Source: a phage. Taken from it: a stretch of DNA of 64,000 bases. The notes under the pieces are model-generated. The model was not told the origin of the DNA, did no database searches, and worked only from the letters and a program-made list of their open reading frames with translations. Shown piece after piece: positions 19,861 to 42,494 of this stretch. Every line of letters starts with the position of its first letter. The stretch's first letter is position 1. The DNA lies in assembly GCA_025829515.1 (NCBI GenBank), contig GCA_025829515.1_4865.1, one strand, 5' to 3'. The position numbers and the translations under genes were made by a program.

Positions 19861-19870
19861 GAGGGTATAG

Positions 19871-20713: not shown

Positions 20714-20723
20714 GGATTTTGAC

Positions 20724-21569: not shown

Positions 21570-21590
21570 TCCTGAGTAAAGGAAGTAAGA

Positions 21591-22502: not shown

Positions 22503-22509
22503 TTAGGCC

Positions 22510-22556
22510 TCGCTGGGAGGAGGAAATCCTCCTCCTGGCTACTCCTTTCTTTTTTG
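22510..22556 (+). terminator. intrinsic terminator
   Basis: gggaggagg-aaat-cctcctcc hairpin followed by T-run. Confidence 0.7.
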
Positions 22557-22571
22557 GCCGAGGAGGCTATT

Positions 22572-23411: not shown

Positions 23412-23421
23412 GAATTAGCGA

Positions 23422-24309
23422 ATGGCTATTTATCAACCTTCTAAAGACGTCCTGTTGGCAGCAGTGAACGCACAGAACTCGCTTGCTGTTAAGATGACTG
23501 ACATCATCTGGTCCTCGCCAAAGGACATCCGTGGTACGGAGAAGGAAACGCTGACTAACCGTAACACGCAAATTAAAATTACGGCAGATGGGGTAACGGG
23601 CTCTACCTGGTCGGGTAAGAAAAATGTCTTCTACAACCGCATGAAAGTCGAAGACTTGTTAGTGCTGATTGGTGACACGTTGGCGATCGGCCCATCCAAC
23701 GAAACCTTGTATGCGGCCATTCCTGGACTGAACCAACGTTACGGTTTTGTTCTGGAAGAAGCTGACCTGCAGGACGCAGATATCGAATGGAACGGTGATA
23801 AGACCGAAGGTACTGTGCGCGTTGTTGCACATCCGGAGTCTATCGGCTGGGTTGGACAGGCGACATTTAAAGTCGTGAAAGGCGATGAGTCGTTAGTCTC
23901 TGCGGTCACTACTAACGTCCTGACCGGTCTGAAATACCCGAACGGTCAGATGGGTTCCGAAACCGTTACTGCGGTCATTGCAGAGGTTTATTCCTACCCG
24001 TACAACTTCACCAAATACCGTGATGAGTTGCTGGCATACGTGCCGGGTATTCTGTCCGGGCAGCCGTTAACGGATATGGTTAACCTGCTGAAAGATATCA
24101 CGGGTACTGCATGGGTAGCGACCACCTCCGCTTCCTACGGTTTGGCGGGCGCGGAGGTTATCAGCGTTGGTCTGAATGACCCTGTTGCAATGCCGACAAA
24201 CGCGAAGTACAAGTATGCGCTGGTGTTGAAACTGCCTGTTACCTGTACCACCATCGTCGGAACGTTGTATCTCCAGTTCAACGATCTGGACGATCCAAGC
24301 GAGGTATAA
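23422..24309 (+). CDS. paralog-family protein, short type, member 6
   Basis: TNRNT, YGFVLEEADL, C-terminal LYLQFNDLDDPSEV. Confidence 0.7.
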   Translation: MAIYQPSKDVLLAAVNAQNSLAVKMTDIIWSSPKDIRGTEKETLTNRNTQIKITADGVTGSTWSGKKNVFYNRMKVEDLLVLIGDTLAIGPSNETLYAAIPGLNQRYGFVLEEADLQDADIEWNGDKTEGTVRVVAHPESIGWVGQATFKVVKGDESLVSAVTTNVLTGLKYPNGQMGSETVTAVIAEVYSYPYNFTKYRDELLAYVPGILSGQPLTDMVNLLKDITGTAWVATTSASYGLAGAEVISVGLNDPVAMPTNAKYKYALVLKLPVTCTTIVGTLYLQFNDLDDPSEV

Positions 24310-24312
24310 TTG

Positions 24313-25140
24313 ATGATCAACTATGCTAAGCCGTCAAACGAGTTGGTCTTTGACCTCATTAACCGGGATAACCCAAACCTACCTATTAAAGCGTCGCCGG
24401 CAAACTGCTACGTGGAGAAAGTGACACAGGTTCCCGTTAATGCAGCTTCCAACAACCGCAATACGTCGGCACGCTTGCGCGGTATTCAGGGTTCTGGATT
24501 TCGAGACGCAATCACCGTTTACTACGACCGTGTGAACTTAGCGCGGTTATTGCCGTGGGGGCCTTCCGTCCAGGCGCAGTTCGTCACGTTTGACGCACCC
24601 AACCTCCACTCAGCCTTTTCGGTGCTCTTGGATACCTACGGAGTAAACTTCTCCGCAATCGATATCCAAAACTACTCACTGTTTGGTGCCAATACCCCAA
24701 ATTACACCAATACACAGACCATTGCAGCGCTATCGACATCTCCGGCTTATATCGGTTCTGCGACGTTGCGTTATAACCGTGGTTTACCGGTACTAGACAC
24801 TTCGGTGAAATCGGATGTCTTGAATGCGATTCAAGAGCCTATTTCACCGTCTCTCGGTAAGAAGTGTATTGATTTGTTGACGTACGGTATTGACTTTACC
24901 GCGTATAAAAACCTACTGACAGTAGATGCTTCTGGCCTACCGCAGTGGGCTGGTTTGCGTAAGGTGTTGGATGACCTGGGTATTCCGAACTACGCGGGGC
25001 CACTGAACAGCAACACCGTTCAGGATGTGCCGACTTCCACCGCTCAGTTCGCTAACAAATCGTACGACCGCGTGGTTATCCAAACGGGTATCGATGAGGA
25101 AGGCGTGAAAGGCGTGGCGTACTACCACTATAACAGCTAA
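24313..25140 (+). CDS. paralog-family protein, short type, member 7
   Basis: start moved to ATG at 24313; NNRNT, ITVYYDRVNL, C-terminal YYHYNS. Confidence 0.7.
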   Translation: MINYAKPSNELVFDLINRDNPNLPIKASPANCYVEKVTQVPVNAASNNRNTSARLRGIQGSGFRDAITVYYDRVNLARLLPWGPSVQAQFVTFDAPNLHSAFSVLLDTYGVNFSAIDIQNYSLFGANTPNYTNTQTIAALSTSPAYIGSATLRYNRGLPVLDTSVKSDVLNAIQEPISPSLGKKCIDLLTYGIDFTAYKNLLTVDASGLPQWAGLRKVLDDLGIPNYAGPLNSNTVQDVPTSTAQFANKSYDRVVIQTGIDEEGVKGVAYYHYNS

Positions 25141-25187: not shown

Positions 25188-26600
25188 ATGCTATTTTACT
25201 CGAAGGAGTCGGCACTGCTTGTATACGACCAAGTCAATCGGGATAACCCTGATTTAGTTATTAAGCTGACGCCGGCTATCGCTGCTTTAACCAGTGGCCC
25301 AACCTCAGTTACGTTAAACCAACGTAACACCAAAGCTGTTTTCACCGGGTATCCAGGGACAGGTGTACAAGGTAATGTTACCGTGTACTACGACCGGATT
25401 AACCTGGCCACCTTATTTAATTTTGTGCCGACTGTGGCTATCAAAGACACAGTCTTAACGGTACGAGACGCGTTACCTGCAATAAACGACGCATTAGGAC
25501 TTACATTAGTTGCTTCTGATTTGCAGTCACCTGACGCAAGTTTACCTAAACCGAGCGTTTCGCCGCAGACGTTGAAATTAAATATCTCAGGCAATTGCCC
25601 TGCGTTTACAGGCAGCTTAACGATACGTTATACCGTCCCGAGTGGTGCAATTTACCCCGATTCTGGACCTGGCCCTAAAACGTTGCTGCAAGGTAACACT
25701 ATCGCGGGTTATTTCGGAACAACCAGAACTGCAGAGTTGTTTACACACTCTCAACTTCTTAATGCCACTATATCGGCCGGTGCGTTACCACCGGTACATT
25801 CTGGTGCCGAAGGTTGGTACAAGTTCTTTTACCAGGGTAGGGTTATTTACCTCCCGATCAGTCCTGTCGCTGGCTCCATCTCCTGGAATACGTTATATAC
25901 AAACGGACTCGTTTACGGAACAGACGATAACGGTAAATACCCTGCAGCGACGCCCGTTAACCAGGGACGCATCATTAGCTTTACAGGCGCAGACAACAAA
26001 AGGTTTTACTTCCGTGTTCGTCTACCTAGTGCCGGGAAAGACCCATACGTCAGCGGCACCCCAACTGCCGCTGAGTTAGCAGGTAGTGAGTTTGAGATGT
26101 TCAACTTTCTGTATAATGGAACGTGGGACAAACCGATTAACAGTTACTGGACGCTGTTCTGTTTATTGAAAGATACACTGAAGACCAACGTCGCCCATCA
26201 TCGCATGGCGACGTTGTCTGGAGCAAGTTGGACAAACTTAGAAAAATCATCGAGTGCGGGCAACTACTACTGGTTCCCGGTGCTGGAGTTGGTGGATAAG
26301 TCCACAGTTACCTTGGGTTTAGAAGATATCCACGGTACGGCAGATTACAGTCTCCAACCGTGCAGCGTGTCCGCAGAAAACACATTTAGTCTCAAGCCGT
26401 TAGTGCTCGGTAATCCGGATACTACCGATTTCGAACCGGTAGTTGTTACTTCAGAAAACAGTTTCGCACTGCATCCGCCTGCTTTAATGCTGCCGAAGAC
26501 AGTCGACTTCCAACCTATTGCGGCTACCGCTGAAATGTATACGCCCCCTGACAAGACAACGTTAACGTCTCTTAACGGTGAACTGGACGGCTTTAAGTAG
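25188..26600 (+). CDS. paralog-family protein, long type (anchor N-domain, GPGP core domain, linker, C-terminal NGELDGF tag), module 1
   Basis: NQRNT, VTVYYDRINL, DSGPGPKTLL...GYFG...ELF, YWFPVLELVD, ends SLNGELDGFK. Confidence 0.7.
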   Translation: MLFYSKESALLVYDQVNRDNPDLVIKLTPAIAALTSGPTSVTLNQRNTKAVFTGYPGTGVQGNVTVYYDRINLATLFNFVPTVAIKDTVLTVRDALPAINDALGLTLVASDLQSPDASLPKPSVSPQTLKLNISGNCPAFTGSLTIRYTVPSGAIYPDSGPGPKTLLQGNTIAGYFGTTRTAELFTHSQLLNATISAGALPPVHSGAEGWYKFFYQGRVIYLPISPVAGSISWNTLYTNGLVYGTDDNGKYPAATPVNQGRIISFTGADNKRFYFRVRLPSAGKDPYVSGTPTAAELAGSEFEMFNFLYNGTWDKPINSYWTLFCLLKDTLKTNVAHHRMATLSGASWTNLEKSSSAGNYYWFPVLELVDKSTVTLGLEDIHGTADYSLQPCSVSAENTFSLKPLVLGNPDTTDFEPVVVTSENSFALHPPALMLPKTVDFQPIAATAEMYTPPDKTTLTSLNGELDGFK

Positions 26601-26611
26601 AGGTATCATCT

Positions 26612-27610
26612 ATGTCTTTTACTTTGCGTTGGAAAAATCCAAACGTAATCTCTACGGTAGTAAAAATCTACCGTGATGTTAAAGATATCACACCAAGCGC
26701 TTTGCCTGAACCGATTGCAACGCTCTCAAACGGCGAGACAGAATGGCGTGATACCACCGCCACACCAGGCGCAACCTATTATTACCTTCTGACGGTAACC
26801 GCCAACGGTAAAACAGTGGCATCGTCTAGCCAGAAATATACCATTGAACTGAAGCGGGGAATCGGTCCAATGACTATTCTAAACGGTGACGACCGTTTAG
26901 GGTTTATGGGTGCGGTTCCTTACGACGAACAGTGGCTTCCGTCGCAAATGCCACCTGCATTTTTGGCGATGTTCCCTAACCTACTAACCGATCGTGTGGC
27001 GTTGTATAAATTTACCCGAAACGGGAAGATCTATTACATGCTATCTAGCACGTCGCAGTTCCCGAATACGCCTGTGGACTGGGCTTCCCTCTATCAAGCT
27101 GGTTTAGTCTACGGTACAGGCGATGCTGGCCCAGAGAACGGCCATGGAACGCTACCGGCCACTCCACAAGACGCTAAGATAGTCCACAGAGGGGATACGT
27201 ACATTATGCGTCTTCCTCGCGGCCTGACGACGTCTAGCGAGTCTCCTGCGTATCCTTTCGTGGCTGACTACAATGGGAAAACCCACGATGAAATCGCTTC
27301 TCTAACCAACCCGTGCGAGTATAACGATTTACTTTACACGATGGTTAACGAGGTGCCGAAGAAACAACGTTGGGCTAACTGGGCAACAATCGGTTATACT
27401 TATCTGGGACAGGGTACTTTGGGAACCTTGGCACAGTATTTCGGCGGTGGTGTTCTCTGTATGGAACACGACACCGCGGAAGACCGTGTGCTCCATCGTG
27501 GTATTTTTAACAATGCCGGTGGAACACCCGTATCCACGATTCAGCGTATAAACTATTTATCACCCACCACGAAAGGGCGCTACTACCCTATCTTTGAACT
27601 GGTCGAGTAA
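26612..27610 (+). CDS. module 1 B-type protein (fibronectin-III-like N-domain plus core domain)
   Basis: N-terminus RWKNP...IYRD...TYYYLLTVTANG (FN3-like pattern, inferred); core ends YYPIFELVE. Confidence 0.7.
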   Translation: MSFTLRWKNPNVISTVVKIYRDVKDITPSALPEPIATLSNGETEWRDTTATPGATYYYLLTVTANGKTVASSSQKYTIELKRGIGPMTILNGDDRLGFMGAVPYDEQWLPSQMPPAFLAMFPNLLTDRVALYKFTRNGKIYYMLSSTSQFPNTPVDWASLYQAGLVYGTGDAGPENGHGTLPATPQDAKIVHRGDTYIMRLPRGLTTSSESPAYPFVADYNGKTHDEIASLTNPCEYNDLLYTMVNEVPKKQRWANWATIGYTYLGQGTLGTLAQYFGGGVLCMEHDTAEDRVLHRGIFNNAGGTPVSTIQRINYLSPTTKGRYYPIFELVE

Positions 27611-27619
27611 GGGGCAGTC

Positions 27620-28543
27620 ATGACTATACGGTTAAGCTGGCCGTCCCAAGCCAGCAAAGGTCTTACCGCGATTGAAATCTACCGCAAGGAAGGATGGAAC
27701 GCAACAATCGACGTTTACAACCCAGGCACACCCCACGCCACCTTATCCGGTAGCGCGGTAGAGTTCGTAGATAATATCGATACCCTGACGAAGAATACAA
27801 CTTATCGTTACTGGGTAGCTGCTGTGAAAGATAATGAACGACTTATCGGCAATCCGATTACGCAAGGGTTCTATCCGGACACTGGACCGGGGCCACAAAC
27901 TATTTTGCGTGGCGATTGGGCGTCAGGCTATTTCGGTACGGTATCTAATACCGAGTTCTTTAATACTGCCGAGTTAAAACTCATGTTAACCGCGCAGCAG
28001 GGAAACATGTTTACTTACGACCCTCAGGAATGGCACAAGTTTATTTTCCGTGGGCGAATTGTCTTCTTCCCAGCGACGATGCATTCGAAAAGCAACTCGG
28101 TACAAATGGCGTATCAGTACGGCATGATGTACGGGACCGATGATGTCGGAAGTATTGTTCCGCAGGGAGCCACGGCGACTAAACAAGATTGTAAGGTCAC
28201 GAAGGATGGTCGTACGTACCGTATCCGATTACCTTACGCAGTCCCGTACGACGCGGCACTCTCAGGACAGGATTACAACAACGGTGAATGGCGAAACACA
28301 ATGGGCCGTTTGTATCCTGTCGGTGCACAGTACGCAGCCCTCGGTCTTGGTGCGATTGACTCACTTGAAAGACAAGGCGCGACTGCGCAGCCGAATGAGT
28401 CAGGTGCCGCTGTATTAGCTCCTTTGTGGAGCAACAACATATTCGCTTATGCGTATGGCACCGTGCCTATGGGGATTAGTAACACCGCAGGTGTCGGGAA
28501 CTCGGCCACGATATTCTTTGCTTTTGAATTAGTCTTACCGTAA
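27620..28543 (+). CDS. module 1 C-type protein (FN3-like N-domain plus GPGP core domain)
   Basis: IEIYRK...TTYRYWVAAV, DTGPGPQTILRGDWASGYFG, ends FAFELVLP. Confidence 0.7.
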   Translation: MTIRLSWPSQASKGLTAIEIYRKEGWNATIDVYNPGTPHATLSGSAVEFVDNIDTLTKNTTYRYWVAAVKDNERLIGNPITQGFYPDTGPGPQTILRGDWASGYFGTVSNTEFFNTAELKLMLTAQQGNMFTYDPQEWHKFIFRGRIVFFPATMHSKSNSVQMAYQYGMMYGTDDVGSIVPQGATATKQDCKVTKDGRTYRIRLPYAVPYDAALSGQDYNNGEWRNTMGRLYPVGAQYAALGLGAIDSLERQGATAQPNESGAAVLAPLWSNNIFAYAYGTVPMGISNTAGVGNSATIFFAFELVLP

Positions 28544-28556
28544 TGGAGTAAATACC

Positions 28557-29975
28557 ATGGGGTTGTATACAGAACCTTCAATGGAACTGCTCTGCCAACA
28601 AATTGTGCGTGACAATCCCGGTTTAGCAGGAAAAATCACCCCTGACTCCATTGGGGTCAGGGGTGTTCCTGTTGCGAAAAACGTTAACGGACGAAACACT
28701 CAGATTACGTTGGTAGGAAAACCCGGTAAAGGATTTGCTGGGGAAATAACGGTATATTACGACCGGTTGAATCTGGCCAGTCTATTTAAGTCTGGCCCGA
28801 ATATGGTGAGTATTCCACGTAGCGCACAAACCCATGCGGAAGCGTTACCGGCGTTCAATGAATTGAACGGGTTGAACTTAACCGCGAGTGACATCACCAG
28901 TCCAAACGTTGCATTAATGAAATACGCTACGCCGGAAACTGTAACTCTGACGGCGCACGCTAACTCCTTGTGTTATACCGGGTCATGCAAGATGACCTAT
29001 GTTTACGAACCGATTGCGATGTATCCGAAGTCGGGTCCTGGGCCAAAAGGATTAATGGCCGGTAATGAGTTATACGGATTCTTTGGGCTGGTAAGCGCGG
29101 AAGAGTTATTCACATCTGATGAAATGGTGTATGCCCTCTATAACGGCACCAACTGGCCTAACCGCTACGCTATCAAGTGGCTCAAATTCTTTCTGAATGG
29201 GGCGGTAGTGTTTGTTCCGACCCGTGCGATTTGCAACGTTACCTGGGCAGACCTGTACAACAAGGGTGCAATATTTGATTCCGGAGACGCAGGACCTCGC
29301 CCGAAGTCGACTTACACACCTGTCGATGTTGAACAGTTGAAATACATGGTAAAACGGGATGATGAAGGAACGCATTATTTCAGAATGTCTATCCCGTATT
29401 ACACCGAGAACGCCGCCGCGCCTGATTGGAGTAAACCGCCGTCAATCACCTCTATCCTGTCACTGACCAGCAAATTGGGGTCGGTGAACGTATATGGGGA
29501 GTGGGGAACTCTTAGCACGACTGATGCTAACTTCCTGGATTACGTGTGGTTACGACATCAGTTCGGTGCCGACCAAGCGTATTACCAGTCTATCAGTGGG
29601 AGCTATCGTTCATACACCTACATCTACACCTCTTCTGGCTTTTGGCCAATCCTGGAGATGTTTGATGTTGCCAATGAACCTGTGCCGTTGATTGACGAAG
29701 GTGCAGAGCTAACATGGGCACCGTCCGTGGTTACTCTGACGGACATCGACCAAAATGAATCGCTTCGTGTGGTGCCTATTACGGAAACCTCCGCTGCAGC
29801 GAATCCACGTCCTCTGCTTGCCGCGACGGACAATGATGAACGTGCATATTCCGTCGCGGTAACAGGCATGGCTAGCGTTAAGATTAGACCGATTATTCTC
29901 ACGACTGACCAAATCGCCCAACCTTCAAAAATTACTCTGGGCGATACTAACGGTGAGTTGGATGGATTCCAATAA
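28557..29975 (+). CDS. paralog-family protein, long type with NGELDGF tag, module 2
   Basis: ITVYYDRLNLASLF, KSGPGPKGLMAGNELYGFFG, ends TNGELDGFQ. Confidence 0.7.
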   Translation: MGLYTEPSMELLCQQIVRDNPGLAGKITPDSIGVRGVPVAKNVNGRNTQITLVGKPGKGFAGEITVYYDRLNLASLFKSGPNMVSIPRSAQTHAEALPAFNELNGLNLTASDITSPNVALMKYATPETVTLTAHANSLCYTGSCKMTYVYEPIAMYPKSGPGPKGLMAGNELYGFFGLVSAEELFTSDEMVYALYNGTNWPNRYAIKWLKFFLNGAVVFVPTRAICNVTWADLYNKGAIFDSGDAGPRPKSTYTPVDVEQLKYMVKRDDEGTHYFRMSIPYYTENAAAPDWSKPPSITSILSLTSKLGSVNVYGEWGTLSTTDANFLDYVWLRHQFGADQAYYQSISGSYRSYTYIYTSSGFWPILEMFDVANEPVPLIDEGAELTWAPSVVTLTDIDQNESLRVVPITETSAAANPRPLLAATDNDERAYSVAVTGMASVKIRPIILTTDQIAQPSKITLGDTNGELDGFQ

Positions 29976-29987
29976 GAGGTAACGACA

Positions 29988-30974
29988 ATGGCTTTTACAA
30001 TTCGTTGGACGAACAATAACCCTGGGGCTTCGACCGTGAAGCTGTACCGCGACACCAAACCTCTGGTGCGTACGGCATTACCTGAACCTCTGGCAACGTT
30101 CACTGACGGGGAAACTGAGTATACTGACCGAACGGCGATACTGGGGACAACGTATTACTACATGACCACCGTGACAGTGGGAAGCCGGACACTGTTCAGT
30201 CCGCAGAAATCAATTCTGATTCAGAACCGTCGCGGTATCGGCATCGTGGCTCCACAGTACGGTGATGACCGCTTTGCGTATTACGGGTATGTGGCGTACG
30301 GTGAATTACCTAGCGCGGGTGATTATCCGCCAGGGTTTGTGGCCCTTTCTGGATACGACCCAACTGTTAAGCCGGGCTTGATGAAGTTCCAGCTAGACGG
30401 TAAAATTCTGTATCTGTTTAGTGGTCTTCGTGTGAACGGCAACACGCTGTATAGCCGTGATGCGATTTATAACGCGGGTTTGCTGTACGGTGTGGCGGGA
30501 CCTGGTCCGGAAGGCGGTCATGGCGATTTACCTGACGTTGACCAGGCTGGGGAGTTTACGTGGTTGGGTGACCGCTATCGGATGCGCCTGCTGCGCGGTT
30601 TAACACTCGACAGTGAAAGCCCGGTCATGACACTCGATGCACAGTGGAACGGTAAACTCCATGACGCGTCACCGTATACTGCCGATAGCGAATACAACCG
30701 ACTCATCTATGGGATAAGTAGCTGGTTCCCAGAAAAGAAAAAAGTGATGTCCCTGATAAAGTGGTCGAACTCCAGCATATTCGGAAGTGGATCGCTGGTG
30801 GCAGGCCGTGGGGCGCATTGTCAGGAGTTTGACCCAGACCGTAAGTTGGGGCTGACGCGCGGATGGGCGGCGGCGGATTCCACTGATACCGTGGATAACC
30901 TCCAGCGTATACAACATGTCCCTGGTGCGACCGGCGGTATTTGGATTCCAGTAATCGAGCTTATCGAGGATTAA
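29988..30974 (+). CDS. module 2 B-type protein
   Basis: paralog of 26612-27610; ends IWIPVIELIED. Confidence 0.7.
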   Translation: MAFTIRWTNNNPGASTVKLYRDTKPLVRTALPEPLATFTDGETEYTDRTAILGTTYYYMTTVTVGSRTLFSPQKSILIQNRRGIGIVAPQYGDDRFAYYGYVAYGELPSAGDYPPGFVALSGYDPTVKPGLMKFQLDGKILYLFSGLRVNGNTLYSRDAIYNAGLLYGVAGPGPEGGHGDLPDVDQAGEFTWLGDRYRMRLLRGLTLDSESPVMTLDAQWNGKLHDASPYTADSEYNRLIYGISSWFPEKKKVMSLIKWSNSSIFGSGSLVAGRGAHCQEFDPDRKLGLTRGWAAADSTDTVDNLQRIQHVPGATGGIWIPVIELIED

Positions 30975-30976
30975 TC

Positions 30977-31876
30977 ATGCCTATTACATTAAACTTTGCA
31001 CAACGGAAGCCACAGGCGCTCGATAACATTGAAATCTATCGCAAGACGCCGGGCAACGCCACCATTGATGTTAATGCACCGGGAACGCCTCTGGCAACCC
31101 TTCCGGGTGACGCTACATCGTACGAAGACAACGCTGTGGAAAACAACACCACTTACCGTTATTGGATTGCTGCGGTTAAAGACGGTGAGCGTGTCTTCAA
31201 CACCCCTACCGCCCAAGGGTTCTTTTTAGACACCGGGCCTGGCCCCCAGAAACTGTTATACGGCGACTGGCACGCTGGATACTTTGGAACAGTAACGCCA
31301 GCAGAGTTATTCACTAACGCGGAACTGAACAGCCTCGTGGTGAATATGTTCAGTTCCGCCGTTGGTGCCTGGCATAAGTTCATTTACAAAAACCGTATTC
31401 TGTTTATGTCCGATAACTCGATAATATACGCTAGCCCGCAGTTCATTTATAACCAGGGGCTGATGTACGGCCAGGATGGCAACGGATATGTGCCGAGCTG
31501 GGCTAGTGCACGTAACCAACGCCGCACGGTGACGAAAAACGGTTACGAATACGTGGTGCGCTTGCCGTATTTGTTCGACTACAAATACTGGACGTCTTTC
31601 GTTGGAGGCGGTAACACCGAGTTGTATCTCGACGGTGAGTGGTTTAACACCTTCGCGCGCCTGTACAACTACAGTGGGCAGTTTCCGCGCTTTGACGACC
31701 TTCCGGTCGGTTCAATCGATTCGGTTACTGCCCAACAATCTGCATTCTTTGCGGCTATGAATAACTCGTTCAGTCAGTGGTACAACCGTCCACCTTACCC
31801 AGAGTCGCCGACATGGAGTAACTACGGTACCACTACAGTGCGTTCTATTGCGGTACTTGAACTCGTTCTGCCTTAA
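30977..31876 (+). CDS. module 2 C-type protein
   Basis: start moved to ATG at 30977 (gagga SD); paralog of 27620-28543; ends AVLELVLP. Confidence 0.7.
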   Translation: MPITLNFAQRKPQALDNIEIYRKTPGNATIDVNAPGTPLATLPGDATSYEDNAVENNTTYRYWIAAVKDGERVFNTPTAQGFFLDTGPGPQKLLYGDWHAGYFGTVTPAELFTNAELNSLVVNMFSSAVGAWHKFIYKNRILFMSDNSIIYASPQFIYNQGLMYGQDGNGYVPSWASARNQRRTVTKNGYEYVVRLPYLFDYKYWTSFVGGGNTELYLDGEWFNTFARLYNYSGQFPRFDDLPVGSIDSVTAQQSAFFAAMNNSFSQWYNRPPYPESPTWSNYGTTTVRSIAVLELVLP

Positions 31877-31887
31877 CAGGAGACTTC

Positions 31888-33330
31888 ATGGGATTGTATA
31901 GCGCACCCGAACTGGAATTACTCTGCCAACAAGTCGTAAGGGATAACCCTGAACTCGCAGGAAGAATCAGCGCTGATTCGATTGGGGTGAGGGGTGTTCC
32001 TGCCGAGACCACTAAGAATGGTCGTAACACGGTAATTACGTTGGTAGGTAAACCCGGTAAAGGTTTCTCTGGGGAGTGCACGGTTTATTACGACCGTTTA
32101 ACATTATCAGATCTATTTAAAATAGCTCCGCGCGTCTACGTACCACAAACGGCCAAGACCGTGCGGGATCTTCTCCCAGCTCTACGTGATTTATACGGTG
32201 TTTGGTTATCTGATAGCAGTGTACAGTCGGTAGACGCGCCTATCAAATCGCTGGCAACGCCAACACGTATTAATTTAACCGCGTATAATAGCGTATGCTA
32301 TCGCGGCTATATCCCGGTCGATTATTTGAATGAAGCCGTAGGGTACTATCCAGATTCTGGGCCAGGCAATAAATATTTGTTGGCAGGGGACAGCACAAAC
32401 GGATACTTCGGTCACGTTTCTCAGCAAGAGTTATTTACCTTTGCTGAACTAAACAACCTAATTCGTCCTGATGTTTCCCCAACGAAAATGACTTTCGAGT
32501 GGTTGAAATTTTTCAAGGACGGTAAGATTGTTTATCTACCGACTACCGGAACGTTAACAGCAACCTGGACGGCCCTTTATCAAGCGGGTGCCATTTTCGG
32601 TACAGGTGACGCTGGTCCGTATCCAGACGGTATCGAACCTGTTGACCAGGCTTTGATTGTCACGAAAACTGAGAATAACAAGACGCATTATTACCGTGTC
32701 TCCGTTCCGGTTAGCCCTGATTTATCAAAGGCCACGCCGTTGTGGCTTATTTCACAACTCGGTGACGGTTCTACGGGTGGCGACTGGGCAAATGACACCA
32801 CGTTAACCAGAACCACCGTCTTCTTCACGCAACAACTGTTAACCGGGGGTAACCCTGTTAAAGTACAACGTTGCAATATGCGCGGTGGCTCAGTTGAATG
32901 GGTAACCCTTGCAGATACCACTTACTGGTGGCCTGTTTTAGAGGAAATCAATAAGGACGACATCGTCTTACCTTTAGCTGATGTGGAAGGGGATGTTGTG
33001 TGGCGCGTTAGGGTTATTCCTAATGTACCATCACCACAACCTGATAGCATTCGCCCTCTTGCAGTCGAGGTTGCGACAACAGATGCGCCGAGACCTCTAG
33101 CAACAACTGCGGAACAGGTGGAAGAACCTATCAGCCCGATTGTGGTGGGTGAACCAAACGTCGATACTGCGCTGCCGTTATCGACAGTGTCGAAGAGCGT
33201 AGGTACAGTTAGGCCGATGGTTGTACTTGAACCACACGTCGACGCACCGCGTCCACTACCGCCTACTCAGGCAGAACCTCCACTTAAAACAGATTTAGCA
33301 ACCGCGAACGGTGAGTTGAACGGCTTCTAA
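31888..33330 (+). CDS. paralog-family protein, long type with NGELNGF tag, module 3
   Basis: CTVYYDRLTLSDLF, DSGPGNKYLLAGDSTNGYFG, Pro-rich DAPRPL repeats, ends ATANGELNGF. Confidence 0.7.
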   Translation: MGLYSAPELELLCQQVVRDNPELAGRISADSIGVRGVPAETTKNGRNTVITLVGKPGKGFSGECTVYYDRLTLSDLFKIAPRVYVPQTAKTVRDLLPALRDLYGVWLSDSSVQSVDAPIKSLATPTRINLTAYNSVCYRGYIPVDYLNEAVGYYPDSGPGNKYLLAGDSTNGYFGHVSQQELFTFAELNNLIRPDVSPTKMTFEWLKFFKDGKIVYLPTTGTLTATWTALYQAGAIFGTGDAGPYPDGIEPVDQALIVTKTENNKTHYYRVSVPVSPDLSKATPLWLISQLGDGSTGGDWANDTTLTRTTVFFTQQLLTGGNPVKVQRCNMRGGSVEWVTLADTTYWWPVLEEINKDDIVLPLADVEGDVVWRVRVIPNVPSPQPDSIRPLAVEVATTDAPRPLATTAEQVEEPISPIVVGEPNVDTALPLSTVSKSVGTVRPMVVLEPHVDAPRPLPPTQAEPPLKTDLATANGELNGF

Positions 33331-33340
33331 GGAGTAACAG

Positions 33341-34339
33341 ATGGCTTTCACACTACGCTGGAAAAATGAAAATCCGGCAGGTTCAATTGTTAACATTTAT
33401 CGGGGCACGGCTAAAATAAATACAGCCGCATTACCAGCCCCTATTGCAACTTTAAGTAATGGCGAAACGGAATGGACGGACGAAACCGTTATTCTTAACA
33501 CCCGTTACTGGTATCTTTTAACAGTAACTGTTAACGGTCGTACCGTAGGTAGTCCACAAAAATCCATTGTCATTAAAAACCGTCGTGGTGTGGGTGGCGT
33601 CGACCAGATTAACTATTCCGATACTGACGACTTGGCGTTTCTGGGGCAGTTGCCGTTCGAAGAACAGATGACCTATGACGCGTTGCCTGCAGGCTTTCGT
33701 GCATTAACAGGGATATCGGGCACGGGCACGCTAATCATGAACAAGTTTTATCGTCATGGTAAAGTTTACTACATGATGAACAGCGGCGGACGATTTAACT
33801 CTACACTTTACTCGTGGAATGACATTTATAACGCGGGGCTTGTGTACGGTGTTGATGGATTTGGTCCTGATAACGGACGTGGGGATTTGGCAGGTGTTGA
33901 CCAGAGTGGGTTGTTTGAATGGCAAGGCGACACCTATCGGATGCGATTGCTGCGCGGTTTAACCGACGGGGACGAACCGACAGTAATGACATTGGATGAA
34001 TCGTTGCGAAACGCAGACCATGATGACTTGGAATATGGTCGCTGCGAATATAACGATTTTGTTTATCCGTTCGGAGAATGTATCCCTAACAAACAAATGC
34101 TCCCTAACTGGACTAATATTAGTCCAGCGTCCATTTATGGGAGCGGTAGCGCTTACCAAGGCAAAGGTTTCTTGTGCCAAGAACGTGATCCTGAATCGGG
34201 ATTAGTTCTGGTTCGCGGGTCTGCGCCTATCGATTCAAGCATAACCAATACGTCGAAACGTAACCTCTCCCAAGTTACGTTAGTTGATAGTGCTGAGAAG
34301 GTCGGTTTGTACGCATTCGTTATCGAGTTAGTGGAGTAA
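33341..34339 (+). CDS. module 3 B-type protein
   Basis: paralog of 26612-27610 and 29988-30974; ends YAFVIELVE. Confidence 0.7.
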   Translation: MAFTLRWKNENPAGSIVNIYRGTAKINTAALPAPIATLSNGETEWTDETVILNTRYWYLLTVTVNGRTVGSPQKSIVIKNRRGVGGVDQINYSDTDDLAFLGQLPFEEQMTYDALPAGFRALTGISGTGTLIMNKFYRHGKVYYMMNSGGRFNSTLYSWNDIYNAGLVYGVDGFGPDNGRGDLAGVDQSGLFEWQGDTYRMRLLRGLTDGDEPTVMTLDESLRNADHDDLEYGRCEYNDFVYPFGECIPNKQMLPNWTNISPASIYGSGSAYQGKGFLCQERDPESGLVLVRGSAPIDSSITNTSKRNLSQVTLVDSAEKVGLYAFVIELVE

Positions 34340-34342
34340 AAC

Positions 34343-35245
34343 ATGTCGATTATCTTAAACTGGAAACAACAGTCAGGTCAGACTTTAGATTCCATTGAAA
34401 TCTATCGTTACGACAACCCTAGACAAAGTGTTAACCCAGTAGCACCGGGGGAACCCATTGTAACACTACCAGGTAACACAACGACGTACGAGGACAAGAC
34501 CACCGAAGCGTATAAAACGTATCAATATCGCATCGTGGCGGTAAAGGGCACTGAAAAGGTTATGGGGCTGCCGATTGTACAGGGCGACTTTCCAATGACA
34601 GGGCCCGGCCCACAGGAACTTATTCGTGGCGATTGGCATCGTGGCTACTTTGGCACACTGACAAACAAAGAATTTATTCTTAACCATGCCGAGCTGAATG
34701 GTTTAATTGGCTTTAATGCCTGGAACCAAGCTCCAACATTGTTCCATAAATTCGTTTTCAAAGGACGCATTCTGTTCATTCCTGACACGGTGACCCGTTT
34801 AGGGACGTCGTGGGAAGAACAATACCGGCAAGGTCTGGCCTGGGGAACAGATGACTACGGTTTCCCGCCAGGGGGCGTCACTACCACTAACCAGCGTCGG
34901 ACATTTAATAAAGACGGTTACGAGTATGTGGTACGCTTGCCTCGACTCGGAGACTACAGTTATGGGCACAGCACCTACCTAAGCAGCGGTGGTTATTTTC
35001 AAGACGGCGAGTGGCACAACACGTTCGCAAGCTTGTTCCGGTACGCGGGCGTCGTAAGACGTTTTGGCGACTTACCGATGCGCTCCGGCGGTAGTCCAAC
35101 CGATTCAAGCGCAACATTGTTTGCCAACGGTCGTGACATCTACAACGCCTGGTACTATCGCAGCAACTCACCAGACTCACCATCGTATACCTATTCGACC
35201 GATAGCGCGTCGGTAGTCCACGTTATCGAATTGGTTCTTAGCTAA
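34343..35245 (+). CDS. module 3 C-type protein
   Basis: paralog of 27620-28543; MTGPGPQELIRGDWHRGYFG; ends HVIELVLS. Confidence 0.7.
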   Translation: MSIILNWKQQSGQTLDSIEIYRYDNPRQSVNPVAPGEPIVTLPGNTTTYEDKTTEAYKTYQYRIVAVKGTEKVMGLPIVQGDFPMTGPGPQELIRGDWHRGYFGTLTNKEFILNHAELNGLIGFNAWNQAPTLFHKFVFKGRILFIPDTVTRLGTSWEEQYRQGLAWGTDDYGFPPGGVTTTNQRRTFNKDGYEYVVRLPRLGDYSYGHSTYLSSGGYFQDGEWHNTFASLFRYAGVVRRFGDLPMRSGGSPTDSSATLFANGRDIYNAWYYRSNSPDSPSYTYSTDSASVVHVIELVLS

Positions 35246-35256
35246 CAGGAGCTAAT

Positions 35257-35553
35257 ATGGGGTTTTACTCATCCACTGCACTTGAGCTGTTGTGTCGGCT
35301 CATTCAGCGGGATAATCCCCAACACGCAGGTCGAATCAGCGCAGATTCAATTGGGGAGTGTACGATCTATTACGATAAGTCGTTAAGCAGTAACACAGTG
35401 GCCGATGTTACCACCGCATCCAACTCGTTCGCTAATAAAGCGTACGGCCGCGCGGTTATCCAAACTGACGTCGAAGCAGCTGGAGTTAAAGGGATAGCGT
35501 ACTTCACCATAACAGCTAAAAATAGGCCCCGAAGGGCCTATTTTCTTTTTTAG
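35257..35553 (+). pseudogene. chimeric, frameshifted remnant of the paralog family
   Basis: first ~33 codons match long-type N-termini, then jumps to a short-type C-terminus; a 1-nt difference relative to the YYHYNS-stop ending removes the stop and the frame runs into the terminator hairpin. Confidence 0.6.
35521..35553 (+). terminator. intrinsic terminator
   Basis: aataggcccc-gaag-gggcctatt hairpin followed by ttcttttttt. Confidence 0.8.
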
Positions 35554-35562
35554 GACGTTGCA

Positions 35563-36882
35563 ATGATCAACTATAACAAACCTGTCATGCAGCTGGTTTG
35601 GGATCAGATTAATCGTGATAACCCGCAGCTCAAGAAACCACTCAACGCAACCAACGTGGCGTTATTACAAGGTCCTTTAACCAATGCCTTGCGCGATGGC
35701 CGCAACAGCCGTATAGTGGTAAACGGATTACAGGGTGGCGGTTACAGCGGTAAGATGGACATCTACTACGACCGCTTAAACCTTTCGCAGTATTTTAAAG
35801 GCGTCAGCGTACCGGTTAAAGTACCTTATCGGGCGACGTCCTACCGCGACATCATCGACCGGATTTCCGCAGCTTGTGGGCTGGTGCTTACTGCTGACGA
35901 TTTAACGTATCCTGACAGCCAGTTTGCAATGATCACTGTGGCAACGGGCGATCGGACGGTGGCGATTAAATCGGATAACCCCGCATTCACGGGTCACATT
36001 CCTATTAGCTTTATTCGTGAAGAGCCCAGCTTTGCCGACTTGTACCACACCACCGAAACCGGAGCTTGGGAACCCATGGATGTTTACAGCACGGTCTATC
36101 GACTCGACTGGAGCATGTACACCCAACAGATAATCAATATTCCAATGGGTACCCCGCTGCGACTAAACAGTAACTCGTACATGACCCAGTTCATCGCGGC
36201 GCTGTCGGCATGGTCGGGCATCCCGTTCACTATCGGTAATGCTGCTACCGATAACCCGTATGACCTCTATGGGTATGTCGCTACACGCAATAACAACCCA
36301 GGCTTAGACCCTGATATGCGTGGGGAGTACAATTACTGCGTGAAGTTGACGCCACCTGAGGATATGGGTAATCTCCGTCGTCCGTTCTTCTTGCACTTTG
36401 GTCCGAAAAATAACGTGGCCTATTTGGCGCAGGAAAAGGACGTCGAACGTTATGCGCGTTACATGAGGTTCCGGGAAACCAGCTCAAATTCGATGAGCGT
36501 CACGTTGTATCAAAACGAGTACGTGTTGACTCGGGCAGAATCGCCTGAAACTGCGGATGATTTAACGGGTTCCCCGTATGGCACTCGATACTGTACCGGG
36601 AGTATTCGACGGCTGATGCAACACGCGTTTCCGACCGAAGAGATGTTCCAAGAAAGTATTGCTAACCGACGTCGGGTACTGTACCACACTGCTTACACCA
36701 CCACGACATCAGCTATTACTTACCAGGGACTATACCGTAACGGATACCAATCCAAACAAATGACGAGCCTCTACTCGAATTACTGTAACTATTTCATCTA
36801 TTACGACCCAAGCAAAGGCGGCTATATGGTCTACAGTCCATATAGCAAAACCGCCCCGGTCCCTTGGTATCCAGCGCTATAG
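35563..36882 (+). CDS. paralog-family protein with a distinct C-terminal domain
   Basis: N-terminus MINYNKP...INRDNP...DIYYDRLNLS is family-like; C-terminus YYD..G.M...PY.K.AP.PW shared with the next gene. Confidence 0.65.
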   Translation: MINYNKPVMQLVWDQINRDNPQLKKPLNATNVALLQGPLTNALRDGRNSRIVVNGLQGGGYSGKMDIYYDRLNLSQYFKGVSVPVKVPYRATSYRDIIDRISAACGLVLTADDLTYPDSQFAMITVATGDRTVAIKSDNPAFTGHIPISFIREEPSFADLYHTTETGAWEPMDVYSTVYRLDWSMYTQQIINIPMGTPLRLNSNSYMTQFIAALSAWSGIPFTIGNAATDNPYDLYGYVATRNNNPGLDPDMRGEYNYCVKLTPPEDMGNLRRPFFLHFGPKNNVAYLAQEKDVERYARYMRFRETSSNSMSVTLYQNEYVLTRAESPETADDLTGSPYGTRYCTGSIRRLMQHAFPTEEMFQESIANRRRVLYHTAYTTTTSAITYQGLYRNGYQSKQMTSLYSNYCNYFIYYDPSKGGYMVYSPYSKTAPVPWYPAL

Positions 36883-36896
36883 ACTAAGGTGTCACC

Positions 36897-39074
36897 ATGT
36901 CCTACACTCCTGATTTAGTGGCGACCGTGATTCGGTCGCTCAACCGTAAAAACGCGGTCGCCAAAGCAGTAGACCCCGCTAACGTACGCCTGGTGTCCGT
37001 GGCGCATCGTGACGAAAAAACCCTAGACGTCACACTGACAGGGGGTCCGGGGTATTCAAGTTACGGTCAAATTACGGCCCAAGTCACGAAGCAAAATATT
37101 GCTGATTATTTCGCCAAGGTTAAGTTGGATGCCATTCCCACTTGTGCGTCCATCCACGAACTGTTGCCGCATTTAGACACTCTACTAGGGATTACCTTTT
37201 TAACTGACGACTTTGAAGACCTGCCTATCACTTGGACAAACAATGCTGCGTGTATCACGTTCCAGGCGAAACAGACAAGTCTTATCTGGTACGGCAGCCA
37301 AACGCTAGATGTGATAAACGGTGACGTGGATATCAACACCGTCTACACTGTTACCAACATCATTCTCACGCTAAAGGCTGCGAATAAACAGCAGTGGATT
37401 AACTTCTACTCTAATGCAACCAAACGGATCGTGGATCTTGATAAAGTCGATGTCAGCTCCCCGATGTCCCCGGAGGATATAGGCCAAACCTCTGCGTATA
37501 ACAGCGTCGTAGCTTTGACCGCTAGACCGGGGAGCGGGATGTTTGGAACGAAGTATGTGTTCTTTTCACGTAACAAACTCGAGACATATGCAGGCAAAAC
37601 CACATACGTCCCGGATGATTTCACCGGTAGCCTGCACGATGCTCTGGCCATCGAGACACTCGGCATTCGGAGTGTTTTTGATGTAAACGAAATTGCTCCT
37701 GTAGAGAACCTGGCAGGCGAGTGGCCGAGACAAGTGCAATTGGCACCCGTAGAGGGTTCGTACAAAGTCATGGGCAGTGCCACGTTGAATGTGGCACGCT
37801 ATCAAGATAACGAGCAAACCCTTAACCTGAACTACACAACTACGTCGCAACTTTCGGACAGCTACTGGGCCACAACGTTGACCAACCATGCGGCGTGCGG
37901 GCGTTTGTTTGTTAACGTGACCGTAGATGCGGGGGCTTTCGTTTATCGCGACAGCAACCTGAAACCGACGTTCGTTATCGACGAATTGCCGCAAATTGGC
38001 GAGGTGGTTTGGAACTTCGTTAACCGGGGAACCATTCTTGGTCGTGGTGGTTCGGGTATGGTCTACTCTATGCCTGCGAACACATCAGCGGACGGAGCTG
38101 ACGCAATCCACATTACCGATGCCTTCCGCGGCAAAGTCACCATCGAAAACTACGGCACCATCGCCGGAGGTGGGGGCGGGGGCGACTACTATGCGTTTAG
38201 CACCACCAAGATCGGTGGAGCTGGTGGTGCGCCACTCGGGACAGGCGCGGTGGTGCCCAGCGGCACCAATAACCGTAACGGCTTAGCTGGGTCCCGTGAC
38301 AAAGGCGGTGCTACTCAGTTAGTCGTCGCACAATTTACCGGCTACCAGAGTCGCTACTATGGCGGTCCGGGTGGGGATTGGGGCCAGCCGGGACGATATA
38401 CAGCGTTCGAGCAATGGAACACCCCGGCTACCGGCTCGCCGATCTATGTCTACGGTCGTGAAGACGGGATGTCATGGACTCGCCCTGGGATGGCAGGCGA
38501 AGCCGTCGGTGGGAATAAAAGTATCGTCAACTGGGTATCCGTCGGAACGGTGAAACCGAATGTCACCAACGAGTACCAAGAGTTCCTCGACTACCTCGCA
38601 GATTTAGATGCCAACCGATTGGCCAGTGCGGATGGGATAGATAAAGTCACCGACCCAACCAAGCCTGTAGTTGTGGAGTTCTTAGGTACGATTATTTCAG
38701 GTACGCTGTTCCAAAAGCAAAACATACCCGGCGGTTTGGTGGGAACACCATACGGCGATGCTGTAGCCAACTTACCAGCCACCACATTGTTTGGTATCAT
38801 GGCACACTGTGTATCGGAGTTTGATATTGTGCACGACACTTGGCGTTACAACCGCGCGGTGATGTTCACGCTAAAACCCGCACCTACCGGGGCGATTAGC
38901 CTCGCTGTGGAACGCAACCGGGTGAAATCGGCTACCAGTAGTGCACCGGTGGAGAAGTTCTACGTCGATCGCTTCGTGTATTACGATGCGTATCTCGGTA
39001 AAATGATGGAATGTAATCCGTATACCAAATCTGCCCCTAAACCGTGGGTGCGGCCAACGATACCGTTATCGTAA
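36897..39074 (+). CDS. paralog-family protein with Gly-rich region (725 aa); candidate receptor-binding protein
   Basis: Gly-rich tract IAGGGGGGDYYAFSTTKIGGAGGAPLGTG; C-terminal domain shared with 35563-36882; stop is followed in frame by FNEELDGFKA-stop. Confidence 0.65.
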   Translation: MSYTPDLVATVIRSLNRKNAVAKAVDPANVRLVSVAHRDEKTLDVTLTGGPGYSSYGQITAQVTKQNIADYFAKVKLDAIPTCASIHELLPHLDTLLGITFLTDDFEDLPITWTNNAACITFQAKQTSLIWYGSQTLDVINGDVDINTVYTVTNIILTLKAANKQQWINFYSNATKRIVDLDKVDVSSPMSPEDIGQTSAYNSVVALTARPGSGMFGTKYVFFSRNKLETYAGKTTYVPDDFTGSLHDALAIETLGIRSVFDVNEIAPVENLAGEWPRQVQLAPVEGSYKVMGSATLNVARYQDNEQTLNLNYTTTSQLSDSYWATTLTNHAACGRLFVNVTVDAGAFVYRDSNLKPTFVIDELPQIGEVVWNFVNRGTILGRGGSGMVYSMPANTSADGADAIHITDAFRGKVTIENYGTIAGGGGGGDYYAFSTTKIGGAGGAPLGTGAVVPSGTNNRNGLAGSRDKGGATQLVVAQFTGYQSRYYGGPGGDWGQPGRYTAFEQWNTPATGSPIYVYGREDGMSWTRPGMAGEAVGGNKSIVNWVSVGTVKPNVTNEYQEFLDYLADLDANRLASADGIDKVTDPTKPVVVEFLGTIISGTLFQKQNIPGGLVGTPYGDAVANLPATTLFGIMAHCVSEFDIVHDTWRYNRAVMFTLKPAPTGAISLAVERNRVKSATSSAPVEKFYVDRFVYYDAYLGKMMECNPYTKSAPKPWVRPTIPLS

Positions 39075-39114
39075 TTTAACGAGGAACTTGACGGGTTTAA
39101 AGCCTGAAGATAAT

Positions 39115-39152
39115 CCATGCCCTCTTCCCCACGGGGAAGAGGCTTTCTTTTT
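39115..39152 (+). terminator. intrinsic terminator
   Basis: cctcttcccc-acgg-ggaagagg hairpin followed by ctttcttttt. Confidence 0.75.
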
Positions 39153-39179
39153 ATGACCCTATCAACTCAGGAGGTTATC

Positions 39180-39770
39180 GTGGTCGATCGTTGGAGTAAA
39201 GAGGGCATTATTCGTGCCAAAGTAAACATCGAAGCCGGTTACGTTAATAACCCGAAAGATTTGGGCAAAGCAACGAACCGCGGTGTCACCGAACTCACTG
39301 CGCGCGAATATGGCTATAAAGGGGATATGCGTGACCTGAGCTTAGAAATCGCGTTAGACATTTACAACAAGCTCTGGTGGCAGCGGATGCGTTTAGACCA
39401 GATTATGAAAATGAATGTCCTGCTAGCTGACCGAATGTTTGATTTCGGCATTAACGCAGGACGCGGTAACTGTATCAAGTCCCTGCAACGTATTCTGAAC
39501 GTATTAAACCGTCAGGGTAAACTATACGATGATATCGATGCCGATGGTGGTATCGGGCCACGTACGTTAACAGCGTTAGAAGGCTTCATCAAAGCCCGTG
39601 GGGAAGAGGGCCTGAATCGACTGATGTTCGCTTTAACCTGTCATCAGGTTGCGTACTACACGGAAATCAGTGAAGGGCGTGAGGATAACGAAGAGTTTAC
39701 TTACGGCTGGTATGGCCGCGTCTATCAGGAAATGCCAGACTACGTGGCTAAGTTGGGGATGTGCAAATGA
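39180..39770 (+). CDS. endolysin, glycoside hydrolase family 108-like with PG_binding_3-like C-terminus
   Basis: EAGYVNNPKDLGKATNRGVTELTAREYGYKGDMRDL and DGGIGPRTLTALEGF, NEEFTYGWYGRV match the GH108-type phage lysin pattern; start placed at GTG after AGGAGG (in-frame ATG at 39153 lacks an SD). Confidence 0.8.
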   Translation: MVDRWSKEGIIRAKVNIEAGYVNNPKDLGKATNRGVTELTAREYGYKGDMRDLSLEIALDIYNKLWWQRMRLDQIMKMNVLLADRMFDFGINAGRGNCIKSLQRILNVLNRQGKLYDDIDADGGIGPRTLTALEGFIKARGEEGLNRLMFALTCHQVAYYTEISEGREDNEEFTYGWYGRVYQEMPDYVAKLGMCK

Positions 39771-41966: not shown

Positions 41967-42494
41967 ATGGCAGTCATCTCTGCAAAAGACCAACTCGTCG
42001 CGCTGTTTAATGCTGCAAACAGCGGACTGTCTAGTCCGTTAACTTCTGCTGACGTTACATTCGGCGCTGTTGCTGACTATTCACCAGCAGATTCTGGAGA
42101 CACCCGCAACTCCAAACTCACCATCACTGCCACCGCGGAATCCGCTAACTTTACTGGCGAGAAAGAGCTGCATTATACCCGCCTCGATTCATTGAACATC
42201 ATCGGTGCGAAAGCAGTTACCGCTGACCAGGCAGAATGGGATACCGATGAAGAAGTGCTTGCTTTTGTCAACGCAGATCTAATTGCCGCCGGTAAAACGG
42301 AAGATGCGTTTGCATTGTCTGAACTCACCATTTCACGCGAGGACGGCGACAGTGGTGAGAAAATCATCACTGTTATGGTGAAAGAAGGCCACATTAAATA
42401 CCAGCCTGCCAGCCTTGCAGTTTATACTGTAACGCAGCCAATCGTTAAAACTGACCTGAGCACCACCAACGGTGAACTGGACGGATTCGTTTAA
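41967..42494 (+). CDS. short paralog-family member carrying the C-terminal NGELDGF tag
   Basis: DTRNSKLTITA, HYTRLDSLNIIG, ends LSTTNGELDGFV. Confidence 0.65.
   Translation: MAVISAKDQLVALFNAANSGLSSPLTSADVTFGAVADYSPADSGDTRNSKLTITATAESANFTGEKELHYTRLDSLNIIGAKAVTADQAEWDTDEEVLAFVNADLIAAGKTEDAFALSELTISREDGDSGEKIITVMVKEGHIKYQPASLAVYTVTQPIVKTDLSTTNGELDGFV

Follow-up and report, generated by a model that had tools for sequence, protein, structure and literature searches.

In this study, we examined a short peptide tag encoded at the ends of virion protein genes in a 64,000-nucleotide (nt) stretch of phage DNA (contig GCA_025829515.1_4865.1; this whole 64-kb stretch is referred to as the window). The tag has the core L-[DN]-G-F, preceded by K-T-D-L-S-x-x-N-G-E. 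It closes four genes of the DUF7941 family, and a fifth copy was found just past the stop codon of a gene for a putative adhesin of 725 amino acids (aa) at 36897-39074 on the + strand. The explanation that we consider likely is that the tag is a donor peptide derived from the DUF7941 linker, that the 725-aa adhesin lost it by a nonsense mutation, and that the leftover is a relic. The window showed 97-98% nucleotide identity to Salmonella jumbo phage SPN3US and about 30 relatives of the genus Seoulvirus, and by this measure it is SPN3US-like jumbo phage DNA. The genes of the window were matched to those of SPN3US by position; the 470-, 472- and 480-aa proteins corresponded to gp145, gp148 and gp151, the 439-aa protein to gp154, the 725-aa protein to gp155, and the 175-aa protein to gp160.

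The six-frame translation of the window contained exactly five copies of EL[DN]GF, and all of them lay on the + strand, 0-2 codons ahead of a stop. Four copies were at the ends of DUF7941-family genes, and the fifth was past the TAA of the 725-aa gene. In 200 shuffles, the mean number of occurrences was 0.065 and the maximum was 1. The tag observation is real and well beyond chance. The gene at 25188-26600 (470 aa, gp145 ortholog) encodes a protein ending in ...PPDKTTLTSLNGELDGFK, with the intact tag KTTLTSLNGELDGFK at 26553-26597. The corresponding C-terminus is ...QPSKITLGDTNGELDGFQ for the gene at 28557-29975 (472 aa, gp148 position), with the tag KITLGDTNGELDGFQ at 29928-29972, and ...PPLKTDLATANGELNGF for the gene at 31888-33330 (480 aa, gp151 ortholog), with the tag KTDLATANGELNGF at 33286-33327. 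The fourth gene (41967-42494, 175 aa, gp160 ortholog) ends in ...PIVKTDLSTTNGELDGFV, and its tag KTDLSTTNGELDGFV at 42447-42491 directly follows the N-terminal domain (N-domain). All four C-termini are followed by the stop codon, and all four tags are on the + strand. The original prediction had described four family proteins with an NGELDGF-type ending and an in-frame copy, F-N-E-E-L-D-G-F-K-A, past the stop of the gene at 36897-39074; the coordinates and translations were exact for both.

The tag of the 725-aa gene was almost certainly cut off by a nonsense mutation, since distant orthologs keep the tag in frame, the closest ortholog differs by a single C->T change at the stop codon, and the leftover decays within the clade. 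In the orthologs of nine more distant lineages or contigs, the in-frame tag was reached without a stop. Tag-bearing gp155 orthologs were found in P0116 (contig L022), P0117, P0119, L005/L023 (735 aa), Erwinia phage Phobos (gp145), Cronobacter phage CR5 (gp144), P0126 and P0127. The proteins of Phobos and CR5 terminate in ...NLSEANGELAGFKS and ...DLSKAQDTLDGFKK, respectively, and the ortholog in a 236.9-kb JGI metagenome phage in ...LLSALNGELDGFIS. The closest ortholog, that of P0116 (738 aa, 82% aa identity), ends in ...PLSQYNGELDGFKARG, and those of P0119 (75% identity) and P0117 (79% identity) end in ...LSTFNGELDGFDTR and ...ISMLGGEPNGFV. Both the presence of an in-frame tag in related genomes and the conservation of NGELDGF in orthologs, on which the original prediction depended, were thereby found, and its proposal of a nonsense mutation decoupling the tag was borne out at the exact codon.

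The codon alignment of the window with L022 was gapless. The window reads TCG TAA TTT AAC GAG GAA CTT GAC GGG TTT AAA GCC TGA AGA TAA, and L022 reads TCG CAA TAT AAC GGG GAA CTT GAC GGG TTT AAA GCC CGA GGA TAA. The 725-aa protein, now without the tag, ends in ...RPTIPLS, and its premature stop TAA (39072-39074, +) corresponds to a Gln codon of L022 by a single C->T change (CAA->TAA). The untranslated relic F-N-E-E-L-D-G-F-K-A follows at 39075-39104 (+). At the second in-frame stop, TGA at 39105-39107 (+), L022 has an Arg codon that is again one C->T change away (CGA->TGA). The ancestral stop TAA is at 39111-39113 (+), where the 738-aa L022 ortholog also has its final TAA. From these data, it can be proposed that CAA->TAA in the common ancestor of the SPN3US clade would have removed the last 13 codons of the gp155 gene, and that CGA->TGA and further non-synonymous changes would have arisen later in the leftover. 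Between the relic and the tag-coding end of L022, 37 of 42 nt were identical, and all five differences were nonsense or non-synonymous; the invariant Gly of N-G-E is already Glu in the window (GGG vs GAG). The amount of divergence says little about decay, as the relic is no less similar to the nearest ortholog (88% identity) than the coding sequence is (78%), in a comparison of only 42 nt. The decay of the relic is shown mainly by the kind of the changes and not by their number.

The original prediction had also offered low-level stop-codon readthrough, giving two isoforms, as a second reading of this site. In that case, programmed or leaky readthrough of the TAA would produce a minor extended form of the 725-aa protein with a working tag, in keeping with the in-frame position of the relic and its close DNA identity to the nearest intact tag. 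The state of the relic was therefore compared in nine sister genomes. In three of them (1252, SPLA1a and SPFM4), the leftover was as in the window, still EELDGF, which also favors readthrough. However, the invariant Phe was changed to Val by T->G at 39096 in SPN3US, SEGD1, Proteus phage 7, EC001 and SaP7. SaP7 had an additional 11-nt deletion at 39079-39089 that shifted the frame, and EC001 and Lh1B carried an additional stop three codons upstream of the TAA. Third positions accounted for 87 of the 134 variable sites of the gp155 coding sequence in the clade, a pattern by which this coding sequence is under purifying selection; such selection on the post-stop extension, as expected for a readthrough product, was not seen in the SPN3US clade. 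At 39072, the stop TAA has a T as its next base, a context in which termination is tight and not leaky, and two more in-frame stops come after it. In addition, TAA is the ordinary stop of the neighboring family genes, and no tRNA gene that could be a suppressor candidate was found within the window. The relic is located in a 3' untranslated stretch between the 39072 stop and a strong intrinsic terminator at 39121-39152 (+), which consists of a hairpin with a 9-bp stem (6 G-C pairs) and the T-tract CTTTCTTTTT.

Because of the Phe-to-Val change, the frameshift deletion, the upstream stops, the TAA-T context, the lack of a tRNA gene in the window and the terminator, the 30 nt past the stop are regarded as a relic in the 3' untranslated region, and functional readthrough is very unlikely. 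The two-isoform proposal was thus not upheld. In genome annotation, neither a coding sequence nor a readthrough product should be marked for the in-frame extension after gp155.

Conservation of the tag is at the peptide level, as seen from the synonymous codon differences between paralogs. Among the four intact copies of N-G-E-L-D-G-F, five of the seven codons vary synonymously and the single replacement is D/N. This codon pattern indicates that selection acts on the peptide and not on the DNA. Among 58 orthologs of the 175-aa protein, some with as little as 47% identity, L171 was conserved in 100%, and G169, E170 and F174 in 93-98%, compared with a mean column conservation of 72%. In the 470-aa family, L, G, L and F were kept in every member with a tail, where the mean conservation was 56%. 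A profile search of 1.84 billion representatives (50%-identity clusters) retrieved 79 short (150-200 aa) DUF7941 proteins; [LM]xGF was present within the last 26 residues of 47 of these 79, vs 1 of 403 control windows from the same proteins. Among long proteins matched by the profile, only 3 of 55 had the motif at the end. Very long metagenomic proteins with 11-22 profile matches looked like module concatemers but were set aside, as most had no [LM]xGF and one consisted of a different 75-residue repeat.

It was also considered whether the shared sequence is a DNA element, either a recombination or gene-conversion site for fibre cassettes or a translation initiation region of the downstream gene. 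The tags are at gene ends in a tandemly triplicated cassette, the next gene starts 10-13 nt after three of them, and the cluster contains rearrangement scars, all of which are compatible with such an element. Against it, the synonymous differences in the core codons leave the peptide unchanged, and the motif is kept as protein across orthologs of 45-70% identity and across 50%-identity clusters. For the 175-aa gene, the tag does not precede a co-oriented gene, as the next open reading frame (ORF) runs in the opposite direction, and a hairpin and a T-run come after its ortholog in Erwinia phages Machina and Caitlin. A DNA element is therefore highly improbable as the basis of the shared sequence.

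We next describe the proteins that carry the peptide tag. DUF7941 (PF25613) was detected at the N-terminus of all five host proteins, namely the four tagged proteins and the 725-aa protein. All five scored above the gathering cut-off of 27 bits, with 110.6 bits for the 470-aa, 82.1 bits for the 725-aa and 43.3 bits for the 175-aa protein, and the 472- and 480-aa paralogs aligned throughout. A profile built from the window paralogs matched PHIKZ127 with E = 3.5e-23. The AlphaFold 2 (AF2) model of the 470-aa protein matched the N-domain of phiKZ gp127 (9xqd_0) in Foldseek with E = 1.1e-4, a probability of 1.00 and a template-modelling score, TM(target), of 0.58. The AF2 model of the 175-aa protein had no Foldseek match in the PDB at E <= 0.001, and the fold link to DUF7941 was therefore taken from the 470-aa model. 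The five tag-associated proteins are a real DUF7941 family, and DUF7941 virion fibre proteins are restricted to phiKZ-like (chimallivirus) jumbo phages.

Full-length members of this family have two globular domains, N-terminal and C-terminal, with a conserved motif between them. With the N-domain as the anchor of the alignments, the 175-aa tag coincided with VTxxxL[SDTN][GA][LIF]xYP, with which the linker between the domains begins in seven full-length paralogs. The 175-aa tag also aligned with segments of Goslar gp22, gp33 and gp34 (gp34: ...IKELDGLKF...) and with the Goslar gp23 tail ADNVADGFVKPTVSVVG (...ADNVADGFVKP...). The tags of the large proteins are connected with the DUF7941 linker through their similarity to the 175-aa tag. 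The alignments suggest that the tag is very probably the DUF7941 linker motif. The 175-aa protein is made up solely of an N-domain and a linker, and by this architecture it is the counterpart of Goslar gp23 in the SPN3US group. In the receptor-binding-type paralogs (the three 470-480-aa proteins and, ancestrally, the 725-aa adhesin), the motif is at the extreme C-terminus.

Previous work on Goslar has reported that DUF7941 proteins rank with the most abundant proteins of the virion and that purified gp22 assembles into filaments (preprint 10.64898/2026.04.21.720040). In the same work, AlphaFold 3 predicted head-to-tail oligomers in which the linker of one protomer is docked on the next N-domain; this docking was also predicted for gp23, which has nothing past the linker, and a phiKZ gp126-gp127 head-to-tail model fitted unassigned baseplate density (preprint 10.64898/2026.04.21.720040). 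In a cryo-EM atlas, the phiKZ gp127 N-domain (PDB 9xqd) terminates the gp139 band at the outer baseplate (PMC13250141). Given its positional homology to the DUF7941 linker, for which docking on the next subunit is predicted, the tag is somewhat favored here as a docking peptide in head-to-tail assembly. In this role, the tag of one subunit would be a short donor peptide for the N-terminal DUF7941 domain of a second one, so that a tagged protein would be attached via its own N-domain and extended via its tail. The truncated 725-aa adhesin would be built into virions via its N-domains without this C-terminal donor and may act as an end piece. In the AF2 model of the 175-aa protein, the tag had a predicted local distance difference test (pLDDT) score of 85-89, which is unusual for a free tail. 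In the model of the 470-aa protein, the C-terminal ~90 residues including the tag were disordered, which would suit a short linear motif at the end of a flexible tether. The docking signal put forward in the original prediction is plausible.

Virion proteomics of SPN3US bears on this role. The proteins gp145, gp148, gp151, gp155 and gp160 were all detected in virions by mass spectrometry, gp155 with 28 unique peptides and an SC/M of 0.70, and the tagged gp145, gp148 and gp151 with similar SC/M values of 0.48-0.99 (PMC5694885 Table S1); gp160 was present in more than 300 copies (PMC5694885). Since the tagless gp155 is found at a level like that of its tagged paralogs, the tag is not needed for virion incorporation, and this fits attachment through the N-domain. 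Only eight virion proteins of SPN3US were proteolytically cleaved, and none of them belongs to the DUF7941 family (PMC5694885). The suggestion that the tag is a processing signal was not supported by this finding. A prohead-protease site was likewise rejected, as the known SPN3US sites are A-x-E, compared with N-G-E in the tag, and no family member is processed.

Several observations weigh against head-to-tail docking through the C-terminal tag. In the 470-aa AF2 monomer, the tag was not docked in cis; its pLDDT was 34-48, and values >=50 were reached only at residues 460-464. A linker-like segment is present right after the first N-domain in the 470-480-aa proteins, the 439-aa protein and gp155, so the C-terminal tag may be an additional donor or bind a different partner. 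As gp155 keeps this segment, the end-piece consequence is less certain. The C-terminal tag was absent from the large Goslar DUF7941 protein gp86 and the short gp91, and C-terminal tags as a general feature of large DUF7941 proteins were dropped for this reason; on large proteins, this placement of the tag is a peculiarity of the SPN3US/Erwinia-phage group. By proteomics, all members of the family were detected in tailless SPN3US particles and were assigned to the head (PMC5694885), which is a poor fit with a model of fibres anchored at the baseplate only. Reports disagree on where the family is located, as work on SPN3US places it in the head and work on phiKZ and Goslar at the baseplate periphery. 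'Paralog family B' of SPN3US comprises the DUF7941 proteins together with partner proteins (PMC5694885).

Some of these points can also be read as evidence for a partner other than a DUF7941 N-domain. The tag might bind FN3-containing proteins (the candidates being the products of the genes that follow each 470-480-aa gene), a site on the baseplate or capsid, an assembly chaperone or a protease, or act as a head-targeting signal. The occurrence of the family in tailless particles, the undocked 470-aa tag and the linker-like segment already inside the large proteins are in line with this, as is the presence of two related genes after each of the three tagged genes. However, the 175-aa tag is exactly at the DUF7941 linker position, and the 175-aa protein and the gp155 orthologs are tagged with no FN3 partner genes directly after them; the next gene after the gp155 orthologs is an A-type gene. 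Machina and Caitlin have lost the first 470-aa-type tag yet keep both partner genes. A protease or an incorporation signal also agrees poorly with the absence of the family from the processed virion proteins and with the virion level of tagless gp155. A different partner is therefore considered rather unlikely, and docking on a DUF7941 N-domain is retained as the favored role.

The loss of the tag is not unique to gp155 of the SPN3US clade, and the losses are independent. In the JGI metagenome phage, the gp154/gp155 pair is duplicated; a 706-aa copy (L023 10001-12121) ends in ...PWVRPS before its stop, and the other copy keeps ...ALNGELDGFIS. In Erwinia phages Machina, Caitlin and pEa_SNUABM_8, the product of the first 470-aa-type gene ends in ...TPPES, and the tag DNA is cleanly absent (L016 10001-11374 and L018 10001-11371 for Machina and Caitlin). 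As a tentative and rather improbable extension, the tag may be a portable plug for receptor-binding subunits in a plug-and-socket DUF7941 network, its presence being a one-mutation switch between extender and end cap, with adaptive losses. If this were true, the at least three independent losses (the gp155 nonsense mutation of the SPN3US clade, the truncation of the JGI 706-aa paralog and the clean deletion of the Machina/Caitlin type) would be adaptive re-wiring of fibre architecture and host recognition and not neutral decay. Jumbo phages of the phiKZ group have many DUF7941 paralogs, and 'paralog family B' of SPN3US has about twenty members. A 14-residue motif that marks donors would give a simple sequence rule for assembly order, separating chain extenders from chain enders. 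L171 and F174 would offer a small mutable handle for the head-to-tail model in SPN3US, which has an amber-mutant system.

The 725-aa protein showed further features of sequence and architecture. DUF7941 N-domain-like modules were found in tandem at residues 11-154 and 175-306 (two matches with a local hidden Markov model, the second weaker), and the linker-like segment NGDVDINTVYTVTNIILTL joins them; the protein resembles a natural covalent version of the proposed head-to-tail pair. A GP38 domain (PF05268) was detected at residues 373-553 with 66 bits vs a cut-off of 25, glycine-rich runs GGGGGG and GGPGG were present, and the 725-aa orthologs also have the GP38 domain. A C-terminal domain of about 100 residues is common to the 725-aa (36897-39074) and 439-aa (35563-36882) proteins (BLASTP E = 7e-8). 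This common domain ends in ...PY[ST]K[ST]AP.PW, and proteins of the 439-aa type stop a few residues past this sequence, with no tag in the window, CR5 and Phobos.

The surrounding gene cluster was also examined. Upstream, seven proteins of 265-303 aa (19063-25140) correspond to SPN3US gp138-gp144. The region 25188-35245 contains three gene triplets in tandem (about 470, 330 and 305 aa), and all nine triplet proteins have a common domain opening with G-P-G-P-x-T-[LI]-L-x-G-x4-G-[YF]-F-G. In the AF2 model, this shared domain had only weak Foldseek matches to FGE/PvdO/C-type-lectin-like folds (E = 0.018). By eye, the N-terminus of the second and third protein in every triplet resembles an FN3-type segment; these proteins had no Pfam match. 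The disordered tethers before the tag (26310-26550 in the 470-aa and 33030-33285 in the 480-aa protein) hold short internal repeats, P-K-T-V-D-F-x-P-I in the 470-aa family and R-P-[LM]...D-A-P-R-P-L in the 480-aa protein. The repeat P-K-T-[VI]-D-F is kept across orthologs, and the tether may carry more binding motifs. A 98-aa ORF at 35257-35553 (+) is a mosaic relic of a DUF7941 gene, in which an A-type N-terminus, MGFYSSTALELLCRLIQRDNP...ISADSIGECTIYYDK, is fused to the C-domain end of the full-length type, ...FANKAYGRAVIQTDVEAAGVKGIAYF; in SPN3US, the unannotated gap matching this ORF is about 139 nt shorter.

Downstream of the 725-aa gene, an ATG at 39117 is 3 nt past the ancestral TAA. In L022 (3254-3262), the next fibre gene starts at identical spacing (TAA CTC ATG). 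Past this ATG, the sequences of the window and L022 are unrelated, and in the window the terminator stem begins within a few bases; the junction at 39111-39119 is possibly a rearrangement scar. The gene order in relatives is a gp154-like and a gp155-like gene followed by A-type genes with B partners (and C partners where the contig extends), whereas in the SPN3US clade it is three A-B-C sets, the relic, gp154, gp155 and the terminator. Because of the scar-like junction, the terminator stem and the differing gene order, the program-made ORF 39117-39770 is considered to start too early; the annotated endolysin start corresponds to 39153.

The features of this system were compared with those of known systems. 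In Qbeta A1-type readthrough, as in the window, an in-frame extension with a recognizable peptide lies past a stop. Unlike that system, the stop here is TAA-T and not a leaky UGA, and the extension is short, ends at two more stops and decays in sister genomes. In chaperone-usher pili, the donor peptide of one subunit inserts into the next and thereby chains the subunits, and a subunit without a donor element is found only at the end, as in the tip adhesins FimH and PapG. The likeness to this donor-strand exchange is an analogy only, as there is no sequence or fold relation and no chaperone or usher, and the DUF7941 docking geometry is predicted. The 725-aa protein is similar to gp38 tip adhesins of the T2/T6/S16 type in its GP38 profile and glycine-rich motifs, from which the adhesin role is proposed. 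It differs from them in being attached via DUF7941 N-domains and not via a gp37-binding N-terminal domain, in being much larger and in having had, ancestrally, a C-terminal tag.

Among the systems compared, the DUF7941 fibres of Goslar (gp22/gp23) and phiKZ (gp126/gp127) have the same N-domain by Pfam, profile and predicted fold, and the tag of the window aligns with their inter-domain linker. The 175-aa protein shares with Goslar gp23 both the architecture of N-domain plus linker and a place among the most abundant virion proteins. Linker docking of the Goslar type is a prediction in the preprint, and for the tag it is proposed here by homology. Unlike in the Goslar preprint, where this is not described, the motif of the window is also located at the far C-terminus of large receptor-binding-type paralogs; Goslar gp86 and gp91 have no such C-terminal motif, whereas the large paralog modelled here (470 aa) has it after a disordered tether. 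The lineage-specific loss of the tag by nonsense mutation or deletion is new with respect to the descriptions of Goslar and phiKZ. The stop codon itself represents ordinary gene decay, and the tag system is a modest and useful variant of a system that was described only in 2026.

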